From a virus (taxonomy: Duplodnaviria > Caudoviricetes), in IMG/VR virus record IMGVR_UViG_643348562_000001, positions 1 to 64,000 of that record: DNA of 64,000 nucleotides; one strand, written 5' to 3'. The notes below the pieces were generated by a model, which was not told where the DNA came from, searched no databases, and saw only the letters and a program-made list of their open reading frames with translations. Shown in pieces: positions 39,988 to 57,214 of the stretch. A program made the position numbers and the translations under genes. Within the stretch, counting starts at the first letter, position 1. The number at the start of each line of letters is the position of its first letter.

Positions 39988-40009
39988 TTAACCATCCCCT
40001 TATATTTAA

Positions 40010-40355
40010 TTATAATTTCTTATTTCTCTTAGATCGCTCTACTAAGAAGGCTCCTTGTTCTAGCAGATTCTGAATAATTCTATCTTGTTCTTCTTTCGGT
40101 AGTTCATTTAAACCTTCGATATGGTTGAAAAACAAAGATTCAACTTTTACATTGTTTAACTTTTCTCTACCATGTAATGCATCCTAAAGAAGTTTCGAAT
40201 ATATCTGCAATTTTCTTTTGAATATTAGCATCAGGAGTTCTTCTATCTTGCTCATAAGAAGCGTATGTTGTTTTTGCTACTCCTAGTTTTTCTGCCATTT
40301 GAGTTTGTGTATAACCATACTGCTTTCTTAATTTTTTTATATTCTGAGCAAACAT
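40010..40355 (-). pseudogene. ImmR/CI-like XRE repressor of P2, broken by +1 base
   Basis: HTH ORF 40167..40355; removing one C at 40183-84 gives 114 aa (..ETSLDALHGRE..RSKRNKKL*). Confidence 0.85.
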
Positions 40356-40377
40356 TTATAACACCACCTATACTTCA

Positions 40378-40492
40378 ATTATACGCAATATGCGTACATT
40401 GACCATAAAAAAACAGAAAATAGTACAAAATGAGTATTTATTATTGACAAAGTACGCGTTTAGTAATAGTATGTAAGTACGCAATATGTATT
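40378..40492. promoter_or_regulatory. P2 genetic switch: promoter and TACGC(A/G)-based operators
   Basis: TTGACA 40444-49, 17 bp, TAGTAT 40467-72; TACGCA-ata-TGCGTA at 40382; related sites at 40453, 40478, 40696. Confidence 0.7.
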
Positions 40493-40508
40493 GCTTGGAG
40501 GTGAGAAG

Positions 40509-40760
40509 ATGAACACGTTAAAATCTTTGCGTAAAAAGCACAATATTACTCAAGAACAGTTAGCAGATGCTGTAGGACTTGCAACCACAACTATTTCGAG
40601 TTACGAGATAGGTCACAGAAACATTACTATTCCAGCTGCTTTAGCGTTAGCTAAATATTTTAATGTAAATTGGACTATTTTTTTTGATGATAAAGTACGC
40701 GAAATGTACGATTTAAAACAAAGTGATAACCAGGCAAGCGACCAAACTCACCTGGTATAA
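40509..40760 (+). CDS. Cro-like XRE regulator
   Basis: LKSLRKKHNITQEQLADAVGLATTTISSYEIG; GGAGGTG RBS. Confidence 0.9.
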   Translation: MNTLKSLRKKHNITQEQLADAVGLATTTISSYEIGHRNITIPAALALAKYFNVNWTIFFDDKVREMYDLKQSDNQASDQTHLV

Positions 40761-40851
40761 ACCATCAATTACACGACCAAATGTAATTGTACGGTGTGAC
40801 CAACACCGTACCTAAAGTATAGACCAAAAGTACGTAAACATTAAAGGCCAA
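40729..40851 (+). repeat. Array of hairpins with GACCA(A) loops
   Basis: GACCAA at 40740, 40775, 40798, 40822 and GGCCAA at 40846; first three are stem-closed. Confidence 0.75.
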
Positions 40852-40875
40852 AAAATATTCAAGGAGAAAACAATT

Positions 40876-41379
40876 ATGAAAACAAGTATACAGAGACATA
40901 GACAAAGAACTCGTAGAACTCAATCACAAGTTGCAGACATGTTACTTACTACTAAACCAAATATCTGCAATATCGAGAAGGGACGTCGCAATATCTCATC
41001 TGAAATCTTAATGACAAGTTACGAAAGAAGTGATGATCCAATTCTAATCAAAGAAATGTCATACGAGTTCTCGAACGGATATACGACACCAGCACCATCA
41101 GAAGTAGTATTTGATGACCATCGTATATGTATAAAAGAGAGGATGCTTAATGAAATACGAGAAGTAATTGATGTTCTCAATCTCTATCGTATTGATAAAC
41201 GCCCTGAATATTGCAGTCAAGAAGACATTGAGAATGTAAGACGTATCGCTAGCGAAACGCAAGATGTGATTTTTGAAGCACAGGCGCTTATCGACAAAAT
41301 CATTATAGATTACCAATTGAATCCACAAGAATTATCTAGAACAAGAAATCAGCGTTACAAAATGGAACGCAGAATCTGA
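40876..41379 (+). CDS. XRE-HTH protein with helical C-terminal domain (cII position)
   Basis: RTQSQVADMLLTTKPNICNIEKGRR. Confidence 0.75.
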   Translation: MKTSIQRHRQRTRRTQSQVADMLLTTKPNICNIEKGRRNISSEILMTSYERSDDPILIKEMSYEFSNGYTTPAPSEVVFDDHRICIKERMLNEIREVIDVLNLYRIDKRPEYCSQEDIENVRRIASETQDVIFEAQALIDKIIIDYQLNPQELSRTRNQRYKMERRI

Positions 41380-41389
41380 GGTGATTTTC

Positions 41390-41950
41390 ATGGATAAAAA
41401 AGCAATTGGAAGAAAAATACAAAGTATTCGATTGAATCTAGGTATGAACACAAGAGAGTTTGGAGAGGAAATACTTAATTCATCAGACAGTCTTGTGAGT
41501 AGATGGGAGAAAGGTAAATCAGTTCCTCGACAAGATAGGTTGAAACGTATTGCTGAACTCGGAAACATAACTGTTGATGAACTTGTCACAACATTAGATT
41601 ATCAATCGCTCTACGAACAAGAAAAACAAAAGAACATAAAAAATGATGCAAGAATAATCGGTCAACGGATCAAAAACATTAGACGCTCAAAAGGGTTGTC
41701 TATGAGGGAGTTCGGAGAGTATTTCGGTGCTCAAAGTGGAGTGGTATCAAATTGGGAAAACGCAAAACAAACTCCAAACAGAAAACGTTTAAAACAAATA
41801 GCGGAATTTGCCGGAATAACTGTCGAAGAACTTACAGACTCAATTGATTACAAGCAGTTATACGAACTTGAATGCAACAGAGCTGAAAGCCTGCAAAATG
41901 AAATCGATAATTTAAAATTACAAATTGATTTATTAAAACGAGGTGATTAA
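41390..41950 (+). CDS. Tandem double-XRE HTH protein
   Basis: Two repeats IG.(K/R)I..IR...G....EFG....S.WE..K..P...RLK.IAE...ITV.EL...DY..LYE. Confidence 0.85.
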   Translation: MDKKAIGRKIQSIRLNLGMNTREFGEEILNSSDSLVSRWEKGKSVPRQDRLKRIAELGNITVDELVTTLDYQSLYEQEKQKNIKNDARIIGQRIKNIRRSKGLSMREFGEYFGAQSGVVSNWENAKQTPNRKRLKQIAEFAGITVEELTDSIDYKQLYELECNRAESLQNEIDNLKLQIDLLKRGD

Positions 41951-42196
41951 ATGTTTGCACCAGAAGTTATTAACAATTTAACAGATGCAATTGCTGAACA
42001 GCTAGAGGACAAACTGACAAAGAAATATCATCCAACAGTTTCGAGAGAAGAAGCTATGGATCTTATAGGTTGTAGCGCTGCAGTATTCAATGAAATAAGA
42101 AAACGAGATGATTTTCAGTTCGTTCATATTGAAGGAATCTCATCGCGTTACAGCACAGCAAACTTAATCGAATGGATTAACGGAAGGAGGAAGTGA
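41951..42196 (+). CDS. Excisionase-like HTH protein
   Basis: VSREEAMDLIGCS..RYSTANLIEWI. Confidence 0.7.
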   Translation: MFAPEVINNLTDAIAEQLEDKLTKKYHPTVSREEAMDLIGCSAAVFNEIRKRDDFQFVHIEGISSRYSTANLIEWINGRRK

Positions 42197-42197
42197 C

Positions 42198-42389
42198 ATG
42201 AAGTATTTAGCGAAGTTATCTTATACATTACTTTATCTGATTTGTACAATTTTCGCATGCTTAGTGGTGTTATTTCTAGCTTTAGGATTTCAAATGCAAC
42301 CAGCACCAAGACTAGGGTTAACAATCATCGTTCAACTTTCATCATTCCTTTTGCTTTCAACTTACAAAGATTTAAAGGAGGTGAGATAG
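42198..42389 (+). CDS. Small membrane protein
   Basis: Two hydrophobic stretches; GGAGG RBS. Confidence 0.7.
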   Translation: MKYLAKLSYTLLYLICTIFACLVVLFLALGFQMQPAPRLGLTIIVQLSSFLLLSTYKDLKEVR

Positions 42390-42509
42390 ATGAGAAAATT
42401 ACAAGCATTAAAAATAGCCCTCTTAATCGTCATCTTGGCGGAGGAGATTAAGAGAGTTAAGAAAACAAAATATGTTGCTGGCTTAGCTCAAGATATTAGA
42501 TACTTTTAA
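42390..42509 (+). CDS. 39-aa KIALLIVILAEEI peptide
   Basis: AGGAGGTG RBS; overlaps antisense terminator 42407-42456. Confidence 0.45.
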   Translation: MRKLQALKIALLIVILAEEIKRVKKTKYVAGLAQDIRYF

Positions 42510-47821: not shown

Positions 47822-47990
47822 AGAACAAATCATGAGACGCCTTAACTGTACAGAAACATATGCGCAACGAATGATTGACTGGGCAACAAATGAATTAGAG
47901 TTGCGTGTCCTGGTAGCGCAAAAAGACCATGAGTTACAAACTCGAAAGGGGATTGAGGAATATGGACCAACAGAACCTGCGACAGCTTAA
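47814..47990 (+). CDS. 58-aa hypothetical protein (MTKEQIMRRLNCTETYAQRMIDW...)
   Basis: GGAGGTG RBS; not in ORF track. Confidence 0.6.
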   Translation: MTKEQIMRRLNCTETYAQRMIDWATNELELRVLVAQKDHELQTRKGIEEYGPTEPATA

Positions 47991-48138
47991 GACTAAAGTT
48001 AAGGAATTAAAAGTACAGGTCGTTATTGCTAGGCATAACGTGAGGGCATCAGAGGAAGATGTCGACAGATTACAGTTTCTTGATTTTGCAGATTCAATGA
48101 TTAAACAAATTAATGAAATGATGGAGGAAATGAAATGA
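47962..48138 (+). CDS. Hypothetical coiled-coil protein
   Basis: GAGG RBS before ATG 47962. Confidence 0.6.
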
Positions 48139-48670: not shown

Positions 48671-48949
48671 ATGTCAAAATCAGAAGTCTATTACTTGAAT
48701 TCAGATGTTGCAAAGCATTTTGATCAGCACTTTAAAGAAGCGGGATTCTATTCAGAAGAATATGCAATCCAGGAATACCTATCGACCAAAGGTATTAAGG
48801 GATATGTCACACTCATGACCAGAGAAAAAGGTGGCATAAAAATAAAGATGTGCATCGATAGAGATGATAAGACCAGCAACAAGTTTAATGTTAATCAACT
48901 CAATCACAATATAAACCATGAATTATATGACCAAGGAGTGAACTTATGA
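48671..48949 (+). CDS. Hypothetical protein
   Basis: AGGAG RBS. Confidence 0.65.
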   Translation: MSKSEVYYLNSDVAKHFDQHFKEAGFYSEEYAIQEYLSTKGIKGYVTLMTREKGGIKIKMCIDRDDKTSNKFNVNQLNHNINHELYDQGVNL

Positions 48950-49125
48950 GTTTACTAAAGAGATTCAAACTTTATGACCAGAAGAAAGAATGGGCAGTTA
49001 CAGTAATTCCGTTAAGTGGACGTGATGGTTACAGAAATTTGACGTCTAACTTTCAGTTAGAAAACAAGATTTATAAATATTTAAGAACTTTGTTCCAAAA
49101 CTGTTCCAAAACGTTCCAAAAGTAA
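48946..49125 (+). pseudogene. Truncated paralog of 50830..51051
   Basis: MSLLKRFKLYDQKKEWAVTVIPL resembles MYGLLNRIKLLDDKEKFATTVIPL, then runs into iteron DNA. Confidence 0.55.
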
Positions 49126-54057: not shown

Positions 54058-54544
54058 ATGCAAAAGAAAACAAGTCAACGTAATAGAGGTAAATACCTCG
54101 AGACATTAATCGAACGATCCAATATTCAATATGATTTAAAAGGTATAGCCACAATCAATAAGATTCCAACACCTATGACGCATAAGGAGCAAGAACGGAA
54201 AGATATTTGATGCCAGGTACACCAAGAAATCAACAGTCGACTTTATCGGCATTCACAATGGAAAATTTATCGCATTTGATACAAAGCAGACATCACTGAC
54301 CAATCTGCCATTTAAGAATATCGAGCAACACCAGATCGAGTACTTGACCAAGACTCATCAAAAGGGTGGCATTTGCTTTATTCTTATCTTATTTACGAAG
54401 TTTAACGAGTTATATAGATTAGACATCCAAGAACTAAAGGAGCTCAAGGAAACGTTAAACAGAGCCAGTATTCCATATACCTGGTTTAAAGAGAATAAAA
54501 GACCAATCACAAGTAATAACGGAATCATCTACAACTACTTATAA
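54058..54544 (+). pseudogene. recU: RecU Holliday junction resolvase, split by +1 G
   Basis: NRGKYLE..KIPTP then KSTVDFIG..FDTKQT..HQIEYL after removing one G at 54186-87. Confidence 0.88.
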
Positions 54545-54560
54545 AGGGGAACAATAAACC

Positions 54561-54965
54561 ATGACTTATACGACCAACCAAATTGTAAGAATGATTAAAG
54601 ATTATCAGATGAATGTGAAGGTAGTAGCTAAACTTAGAAAGGAATACATTGAGGATGTATGTGGAGCGAATATTTCACAGTACGGAATTGAAGCCACGAT
54701 GCCTAAACCACAAGGACAGACATCTGATCCAATACTTAGAGAAGTGCAAAGATTAATGAAACAAGATACAGTAATTGCTAAGTATGAAGCGAAAGTGAGA
54801 TACATTCAAAACCGTTGGGACAGAATAACGGATGAGAAACAAGCGATGATATTCAATATGGTATTGTCAGGTGTAGGGTATGACAAGATTGCAAAGACTG
54901 TTGAACTATCAGCTCAAAGAATACATCAAATCATAAATGAAATTGCAGAAATATTAAAAGATTGA
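54561..54965 (+). CDS. Late transcription activator (ArpU/sigma-r4-like)
   Basis: ISQYGIEATMPK..SDP; C-terminal HTH IAKTVELSAQRIHQI. Confidence 0.75.
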   Translation: MTYTTNQIVRMIKDYQMNVKVVAKLRKEYIEDVCGANISQYGIEATMPKPQGQTSDPILREVQRLMKQDTVIAKYEAKVRYIQNRWDRITDEKQAMIFNMVLSGVGYDKIAKTVELSAQRIHQIINEIAEILKD

Positions 54966-56500: not shown

Positions 56501-57214
56501 ATGAGTACAAATTGGGACGCAGTAAAAGAAGACTATGACACAGGACAGTATACACAGAAACAATTAGCAGAAAAACATAAAATTAAGTTAGGTACATTGA
56601 AGTCGAAAATAAGTAGAGAAAAGTGGAAAAAGGTTGCAACCAAGAAAAAGGATGCAACTAATAAAGTTGCAAAAAAGAAGCATCCACAAGATACAACAGA
56701 TATAAGAAGAAAGAGTGGTAATCCTAATCCACCTAATCAATTCGCAGAACGGAACAACTTTGCTGTGAAGCATGGATTACTGAGTAGGTACATTCCTAAA
56801 GAGACGATGGAGCTTATGGGCATAGCTGATTCGATGGATGCATCAGATATTATATGGGCTCAGATACAAATACAGTTTGCGGCAATAATAAGAGCACAAA
56901 AAGTAATGTGGGTAGAAGATGCTAACGATCATACGAGTGGAACAACTGGTGTAAGCATGGATGGTGAATCTATGAAAGTTGCATTCGCTTATGAAAAGTA
57001 TGCATCTTTTTTAAGTGCACAATCACGAGCAATGGCTGAACTAAGGAGTGCATTGAAACAATTCTCATTACATGCAGCAGATGATGATTATCGTAAGTTG
57101 CAAGTTGCAGTTATGCAGGAACAATTAACGCAGATTAAGCAACAGAATGAGAATGGAGCACAATCTGATAAACCATTAGAAATCTTAATCACAAGAAAAG
57201 AGGGACGAGAATGA
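56501..57214 (+). CDS. terS: Terminase small subunit
   Basis: N-terminal [18 protein letters not shown]; NNFAVKHGL; [10 protein letters not shown]. Confidence 0.88.

Follow-up and report, generated by a model that had tools for sequence, protein, structure and literature searches.

Genomic setting of the hairpin array

The window (the whole stretch of 64,000 nucleotides analysed here) consists of two tandem prophages, at 1-34900 and 34900-64000, and the hairpin array lies within the lysogeny switch of the second. The switch contains a leftward cI-like HTH gene (40167-40355) and a cro-like HTH_3 gene (40509-40760, plus strand; Pfam HTH_3, 5e-16), the 3' end of which overlaps the first hairpin. 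To the right stands a plus-strand gene for a 167-aa HTH regulator (phrog_1124; 40876-41379), which the first-pass annotation had called the gene in the cII position. It adjoins the array here but not in all phages; its homologues bear Macrococcus or Macrococcoides names, and in prophage 2 it is followed by an antirepressor gene. Prophage 1, with cI at 2016-2351, cro at about 2533-2772 and ant at 2788, has neither the hairpin element nor the matching sites described below.

Two further features of the switch were observed. The cI-like repressor of prophage 2 is split (40010-40355, minus strand): a 62-aa ORF corresponds to residues 1-63 of an intact 114-aa homologue (locus L040), and a separate 41-aa ORF corresponds to residues 76-114 of the same protein. 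The split suggests that a frameshift or nonsense change occurred, or that sequencing introduced an error, and given these ORFs the prophage 2 repressor may be defective. Immediately left of hairpin 1, in the 3' end of cro, an operator-like sequence at 40693-40711 (about 1320-1340 in locus L001) repeats the AAGTACGC..ATGTA units of the cI-cro intergenic region and looks like a third, downstream operator. In phages of a different immunity type this place is occupied by TGATAACAATTGTTATCA, a perfect palindrome.

Within the array, GACCAA occurs at 40740, 40775, 40798 and 40822, and GGCCAAA at 40845-40851. Four of the 24 plus-strand copies of GACCAA in the window thus fall inside 88 nt, a clustering far above chance (<=1e-4 after correction, by a rough Poisson estimate). 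Hairpin 1 is formed by ACCAGG..CCTGGT with an internal mismatch block; the perfect inverted repeats are CAATTACA/TGTAATTG, with a loop of 8 nt, and GTACGGTGT/ACACCGTAC, with a loop of 5 nt. The first-pass annotation had described hairpins with common GACCA(A) loops, and this was borne out by an exact sequence, perfect repeats and a motif density beyond chance. The regular spacing that it noted reflects nothing but hairpin lengths. It had also counted five units, of which the three hairpins are kept in relatives; units 4 and 5 (AGACCAAA and GGCCAAA, 40822-40851) are conserved neither as motif nor as hairpin. Unit 4 (GACCA at 40822) is replaced by other sequence in loci L026 and L052, and unit 5 reads GACCT, GACTA or GGACA at other loci. 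Both units probably belong to the region upstream of the small-RNA promoter proposed below.

The element in related prophages

Relatives were gathered by an IMG/VR search with the 167-aa protein, by a loop-spacing pattern and by look-ups of homologous proteins. About 29 Macrococcus-type prophage loci carry the element, representing 22 distinct core sequences; many of these loci are closely related, and the counts overstate their independence. Nine further matches to the loop-spacing pattern did not fit the covariance model of the element and were rejected as chance. Conservation is limited to the hairpins, all three of them, the linker joining the first two, and roughly 50 nt to the right of the third; it stops there whichever gene comes next.

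The gene before the element is invariably a cro gene, of at least four types in all, and hairpin 1 overlaps the last ~10 codons of each. The gene after the element is the 167-aa regulator, or a 56-aa gene and then a leftward KTSC gene, or an antirepressor-like gene. The expected co-occurrence with the gene at 40876 was therefore not seen: the element tracks cro, and other phages have different genes behind it. In nine related phages a cassette stands between the element and the 167-aa regulator gene (3778-4157 in L040, and equivalents), and consists of the 56-aa gene and, convergent to and overlapping it, a KTSC-domain gene of 70 aa, which has a divergent promoter of its own. Hairpin 3 was also considered as a cI/cro operator with GTAC half-sites and was rejected, as phages that differ in their immunity regions have the identical hairpin.

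A second, more distant lineage was represented by IMG/VR records G157-G160 and G162-G166 and by a Salinicoccus sesuvii prophage. In this lineage 2 a homologous element stands upstream of the homologue of the 167-aa regulator, which is 42-54% identical between the lineages. Hairpin 1 keeps its CGACCAA loop with new stems, again with A.C on the plus strand; hairpin 2 is built differently and hairpin 3 is absent. A search of genome contigs with the 167-aa protein gave one locus only, that in Salinicoccus. Among INPHARED phages there was only a weak Listeria B054 match, to the repressor/cro part, and none to the element. The covariance model (R1) found no match in 151 Staphylococcales genomes, a search run with stricter filters on a set holding no known positive genome.

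Strand of the conserved structure

The array gave RNA folding z-scores of -2.6 (plus strand) and -3.5 (minus strand), and the three hairpins appeared in the predicted folds of both strands alike. The strands were compared by counting the same 28 base pairs on each in a 13-sequence alignment. On the minus strand all 364 pair cells were standard, with seven pairs changed on both sides. On the plus strand 85.2% of the cells were standard; there was not one G.U pair, and every failure was an A.C that is a G.U on the minus strand. Pairing of hairpin 1 was 72.7% on the plus strand versus 100% on the minus strand, with A.C in every plus version of a stem that has at least five versions in the Macrococcus lineage and four more in lineage 2. 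Averaged over 22 versions, the MFE was -37.0 on the minus strand versus -28.1 on the plus, a gap of about 9 kcal/mol. The structure of the array is selected on the minus strand.

The first-pass annotation had taken unlike stems around kept loops as a mark of selected RNA structure. That view stands, as the relatives show compensatory changes: in all three hairpins the loops are kept and the stem pairing covaries. Its assignment of the element to the sense strand was not supported, pairing being complete only opposite to cro (100% vs 85%), and apart from RNA structure under selection its mechanism was not supported. That mechanism was a multivalent protein-binding RNA in the early transcript, either nutR-like or CsrB-like, and we regard it as hardly credible. 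The position after cro agrees with nutR, hairpins 2 and 3 form on the plus strand too, and the loops are identical; however, hairpin 1 is only 73% paired in that sense, with A.C throughout, and plus-strand G.U is found nowhere. Neither a terminator-like site nor a hairpin with a U-tract was found on the plus strand in 40000-42500, which removes the analogy to nutR/tR1 and leaves an antitermination signal no called terminator to read through. Nothing but position remains of the nutR comparison, since the strand is wrong, no boxA-like sequence was seen and there is no downstream terminator.

The alternative of a CsrB/RsmZ-type sponge, with many A(N)GGA motifs, was rejected: the loops, GACCA(A) in plus-strand and UUGGUC in minus-strand reading, have no GGA of the kind found in CsrA sponges, and only three hairpins are conserved. 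There was no Rfam match either. A cmscan of 40000-41600 with E up to 10 gave sub-threshold chance hits (best 27 bits vs a cut-off of 49.9), and membership of Rfam C4 (P1/P7 c4, P4 CI RNA) was rejected as no covariance-model match was obtained.

A minus-strand ORF at 40765-40923 was considered as a small hydrophobic peptide of a type I toxin-antitoxin system. It was rejected, having no Shine-Dalgarno sequence and, in L001-type loci, an in-frame TAG. In the second hairpin-2 allele the stop of this ORF shifts to PYN*, which indicates that the sequence changes track RNA pairing and not coding.

Features of the predicted small RNA

Read leftward, the array corresponds to a predicted small RNA of about 95 nt (40716-40812, minus strand); we infer its transcription and its ends from the features given here, and model R1 matched 40710-40813 of the minus strand with 121.6 bits. 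Its parts would follow in the order hairpin 3', hairpin 2', a single-stranded linker, and hairpin 1' with a U-rich tail. Hairpin 3' (40790-40810, minus strand) has an 8-bp stem and the loop UGGUC, or UAGUC in a second allele, and is confined to the Macrococcus lineage. Its closing pair in L023, L026 and L053 gives U-A or U.G when read on the minus strand, and C.A when read on the plus strand. Hairpin 2' (40766-40789, minus strand) has a 9-bp stem including one U.G and the loop UUGGUC. Two compensatory pairs distinguish its second allele (L021, L026, L052), and its loop and 3' arm are complementary to two trans sites described below. The linker AUGGUUUAU (40757-40765, minus strand), identical at every locus and so forming invariant alignment columns, is complementary to AUAAACCAU at both trans sites and pairs with them in cofold models. 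Hairpin 1' (40729-40756, minus strand), with an 11-bp stem including G.U and the loop UUGGUC, is followed by the U-rich tail; the versions of its stem are fully paired on the minus strand only. It is terminator-like and overlaps the last ~10 cro codons on the opposite strand.

The sequence TATACT (40821-40816, minus strand) stands 5-7 nt ahead of hairpin 3' and is a candidate -10 box of the small-RNA promoter, being invariant in 29/29 loci. The accompanying -35 is weak, poor by consensus, and promoter calling in the window called none at this TATACT. In lineage 2 an antisense promoter was called in 3/3 loci, with TTGAAT or TTGATA, an 18-nt spacer, and TATACT or TACTAT. It occupies the equivalent relative place, ending about 7 nt ahead of the first hairpin. 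At the other end, a U-rich tract follows minus-strand hairpin 1 in every cro context of the Macrococcus lineage. A terminator scan called hairpin 1' and its tail as a terminator in L033 and L052, and most tails of this lineage satisfy the rule of 5 T in 8 by reading; the window's own tail, with 4 T in 8, falls narrowly below it. No U-tract follows hairpin 1' in the lineage 2 loci examined. A further promoter-like sequence inside the gene at 40876 (TTGTCA-16-GATATT, 41017-40990) is a possible source of a longer antisense RNA; it cannot be the general source, because the downstream gene differs in contexts B and C.

Hairpins of minus-strand single-stranded DNA, acting in replication or recombination as a priming signal or as the site of a hairpin-recognising recombinase, could produce the same strand asymmetry: G.T is tolerated in DNA hairpins, and asymmetry alone cannot separate RNA from ssDNA. 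The position of the element at a mosaic junction would suit this explanation as well. We nevertheless consider it very improbable. The U/T-rich tail, the conserved -10 and the lineage-2 promoter suit transcription, inspection of neighbouring genes brought up neither a recombinase of this kind nor a rolling-circle Rep, and linear, non-hairpin copies of the sequence at start codons (see below) are unaccounted for.

Sites complementary to the predicted small RNA

The plus-strand sequence of the linker, 5' arm and loop of hairpin 2 (40757-40780) recurs twice in prophage 2. A 24-nt pattern search of the window gave 3 matches vs 0.00 expected; the recurrence pattern, a 21-base degenerate one, was met with 0 mismatches at 48911-48934 and 1 mismatch at 54554-54577. 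Trans site 2, ATAAACCATGAATTATATGACCAA (48911-48934, plus strand), ends at the AAGGAG ribosome-binding site of the next ORF, which encodes 59 aa (48946-49125, plus strand) and has its ribosome-binding region abutting the site. By hand pairing, 24/25 positions of site 2 would pair with the small RNA, G.U included.

Trans site 3, ATAAACCATGACTTATACGACCAA (54554-54577, plus strand), covers -7 to +17 of the start codon of a 134-aa late transcriptional activator of the LtrC family (phrog_1058; 54561-54965, plus strand), and 22/24 of its positions would pair with the small RNA by hand pairing. The protein was assigned by tblastn, with 34.5% identity (1e-6) to the 'late transcriptional regulator LtrC' of Staphylococcus phage 55-2. 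Its gene lies upstream of the probable terminase genes (57211 and the adjacent one), an assignment made from position and size alone. The LtrC family, a Macrococcus member included, is described in PMC3753634.

Both sites thus stand in translation-initiation regions. In duplex energy they were the top two plus-strand loci, site 2 being the best among 25,504 windows. Cofold ddG was -21.1 kcal/mol for site 2 and -18.9 kcal/mol for site 3, vs -5.3 +/- 3.1 for random windows. In the cofold models hairpin 2' opens onto the targets and hairpins 3' and 1' remain folded. The exposed segments of the small RNA are complementary to the translation-initiation regions of other genes beyond chance.

Conservation of the sites was consistent with pairing. 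The invariant parts of the RNA, the loops and the linker, are those complementary to the targets, and the stems vary by compensation. Several differences between targets are C-to-U or A-to-G, which preserve G.U pairing with the minus-strand RNA. Site 3 forms a 23-nt island (-8 to +15) of 100% identity in LtrC alleles, the next 60 nt being 50-58% identical; in one such allele the upstream 52 nt are only 38% identical. Part of this conservation is that of a TYTT peptide, although phages without the seed use other codons there. The exact 21-mer of site 3 was found in 26 viral contigs, and all of the long ones (24/24) also carry the element. Site 1, the copy in the element itself, has ATC where both targets have ATG. 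The second hairpin-2 stem allele (AAG/CTT) showed no clear compensation in the targets, and pairing there would depend on linker and loop only. The repeated sequence is absent from the ltrC start of Staphylococcus phage 55-2, the LtrC prototype, which indicates that the system is lineage-restricted and no common property of LtrC phages.

In lineage 2 the shared sequence is TTATGCGACTGA in G157, G158 and the Salinicoccus prophage, and TTATGCGACTAA in G159 and G162-G166. Each record holds 2-3 same-strand copies, 5-12 kb apart, all mutually agreeing and often including a start codon; wherever checked, the LtrC-homologue start bears one of them. Per strand of a 40-kb record, about 0.002 occurrences of a 12-mer would be expected. 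Three seed variants were distinguished (the GACCAA type, GCGACTGA and GCGACTAA), and copies agree within each of more than 12 records. The seed of the predicted RNA and its target sequences co-vary between phages.

Several other sequences were noted beside these sites. A cluster of GACCAA at 54298-54572 was rejected as a target, as it lies in coding sequence and, site 3 excepted, is chance-like. The linker complement GATAAACCAT occurs at 57166-57175, 42 nt before the probable large-terminase start at 57211, and no GACCAA follows. With a 9-mer expected about 0.24 times per strand, this may be either a chance match or an additional, weak target. Within ORF 47929-48138, at 47955-47975, GAGGAATATGGACCAACAG joins a Shine-Dalgarno sequence and an ATG to GACCAACA, a match to the loop and 3' arm of hairpin 3. 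The internal Met at this point is a possible true start, and the sequence may represent a further target or chance. The lineage-2 LtrC-homologue starts (L120-L123, L125) carry two tandem similar motifs, AATTATGCGACTGA and ACTTATACGACAGA, encoding NYATE and TYTTE. The Macrococcus lineage retains only the second, TYTTE-type motif, where the predicted pairing lies, which suggests that the LtrC target site arose through a small duplication.

An RNA or terminator read leftward need not act at a distance. It could work in cis only on the cro/early transcript, like OOP or as an insulator that stops antisense read-in, with the extra copies representing recombination 'linker' sequences. The minus-strand structure and the terminator-like hairpin fit this explanation, and so does the position of the element at a mosaic junction, where the cro modules before it and the genes behind it both vary. 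Site 3 is likewise at a junction, with similarity dropping upstream and downstream, and in phages that have the inserted leftward KTSC gene the element could terminate its transcript. Linkers, however, are common to phages at the same position and are not repeated 2-3 times within one genome. A cis-only role also gives no account of the agreement of copies within genomes in three seed variants, or of their placement on start codons and ribosome-binding sites, and we judge it unlikely.

We also considered that the repeated 12-24 nt sequence is a protein-binding site, recognised on DNA by the HTH family of the 40876 gene or on mRNA by a translational repressor, with hairpins decorating one copy. 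A regulator gene of the same family adjoins site 1 in both lineages, and the divergence of the regulator (42-54% identity) could follow a changed site. The sites, however, have no palindromic symmetry, occur only in sense orientation and centre on start codons rather than promoters. At nine loci, in phages that have the element at another place, a regulator 96-99% identical stands behind a different, divergent promoter without such a site, which weakens binding of GACCAAA repeats by the 40876 protein. Covariation through G.U on the minus strand only, the antisense promoter and the terminator are also unaccounted for, and we give a protein site little credence. None of the rival explanations accounts for both the minus-only G.U covariation and the co-varying copies at start codons.

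Proposed function

Taken together, these results make it probable, though far from certain, that the array encodes an antisense small RNA some 95 nt long which, in the manner of P1 c4 or lambda aQ, additionally prevents the late activator from being translated. As a phage regulator it would be of a known kind; its sequence family is new, with no match in Rfam, and its target and architecture are unusual. In the proposed mechanism, the small-RNA gene would be read leftward, antisense to the early operon immediately after cro, with hairpin 1' serving as its terminator. The UUGGUC loops and the 9-nt single-stranded linker would be its exposed parts. By its antisense origin the RNA would be fully complementary to the early transcript at the element, and its linker and hairpin 2' are nearly complementary to the LtrC-type start region and to the ribosome-binding region of ORF 48946. 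It would pair with both regions as hairpin 2' opens, blocking translation and possibly also leading to RNase III cleavage. Late genes would be kept silent until early transcription titrates or overrides the small RNA; this titration logic and the effect on translation are what we infer from the pairing.

The least explained feature is the identity of the three loops, since two targets alone leave the sameness of all three unexplained. A plausible role for them is as redundant seeds, recognising GACCAA both in the targets and in the cis transcript.

Control of LtrC/RinA-type activators is attributed simply to their location at the end of a repressor-controlled early operon (PMC3753634). A block at the start codon of the activator would add a post-transcriptional checkpoint on late genes, and hence on packaging and lysis. 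Such control is absent from a 2025 review of phage small RNAs (PMC12197685), and our literature search found none for Gram-positive phages. More tentatively, and as a possibility that we would put at less than even, the element may represent an undescribed small-RNA family of temperate phages that infect Staphylococcaceae and their relatives. It would be a second lock on lytic growth, set at the RNA level and undone when strong early transcription provides the complement, and its seed and targets would co-evolve in groups. If this is true, a resident prophage could shut off late genes in heteroimmune phages that enter the cell and belong to its seed group, a parallel to P1/P7 c4 heteroimmunity. 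The seed specificity groups (GACCAA, GCGACTGA and GCGACTAA) suggest such an RNA-based layer of cross-immunity between prophages, and the natural seed variants with matching targets are ready-made compensatory-mutation tests. For annotation, the lesson is that identical loops with different stems after cro can signal a gene on the opposite strand.

Comparison with known systems

The element shares its position after cro with lambda nutR and its repeated loops with CsrB/RsmZ. It differs from them in strand and in having no boxA, no downstream terminator and no GGA loop motif.

ColE1 RNA I, R1 CopA and pIP501 RNAIII are, like the predicted RNA, antisense RNAs of about 100 nt with several stem-loops. 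Recognition by such plasmid copy-control RNAs begins with loop-loop kissing, and the UUGG of the loops would fit the YUNR U-turn motif of plasmid antisense RNA loops. Unlike the predicted RNA, the plasmid RNAs control replication, carry loops that are not alike, and lack trans targets.

Lambda OOP and P22 sar are short antisense RNAs with their own promoter and terminator, encoded between early regulatory genes and reaching into the 3' end or ribosome-binding site of a neighbour; OOP overlaps the 3' end of cII (PMC12197685), and the small RNA predicted here overlaps the 3' end of cro. Those RNAs have one hairpin and a cis target only, whereas here three hairpins with the same loop are combined with distant matching sites. 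Lambda aQ, an RNA that lowers expression of a late activator in a temperate phage (PMC12197685), has a comparable target. It is encoded in Q and acts in cis, whereas the predicted RNA is encoded about 13.8 kb away beside cro and would act in trans on the start codon.

The element also resembles c4 of P1/P7 (Rfam C4, RF01695) and IsrK/anrP of Salmonella Gifsy-1, which are small structured phage RNAs. As in c4, the seed and its targets change together between phages and give specificity groups. In c4 and IsrK, exposed loops pair with the ribosome-binding or start region of a key regulator on the same transcript strand (PMC12197685, PMC4825925). The predicted RNA differs from c4 in several respects: the two have no similarity in sequence or model, c4 is cut from the sense transcript and the RNA proposed here comes from the opposite strand, the target is a late-gene activator and not an antirepressor, and the host is Gram-positive. 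The predicted small RNA would thus be c4/IsrK-like in mechanism, aQ-like in the kind of target and OOP/sar-like in position.
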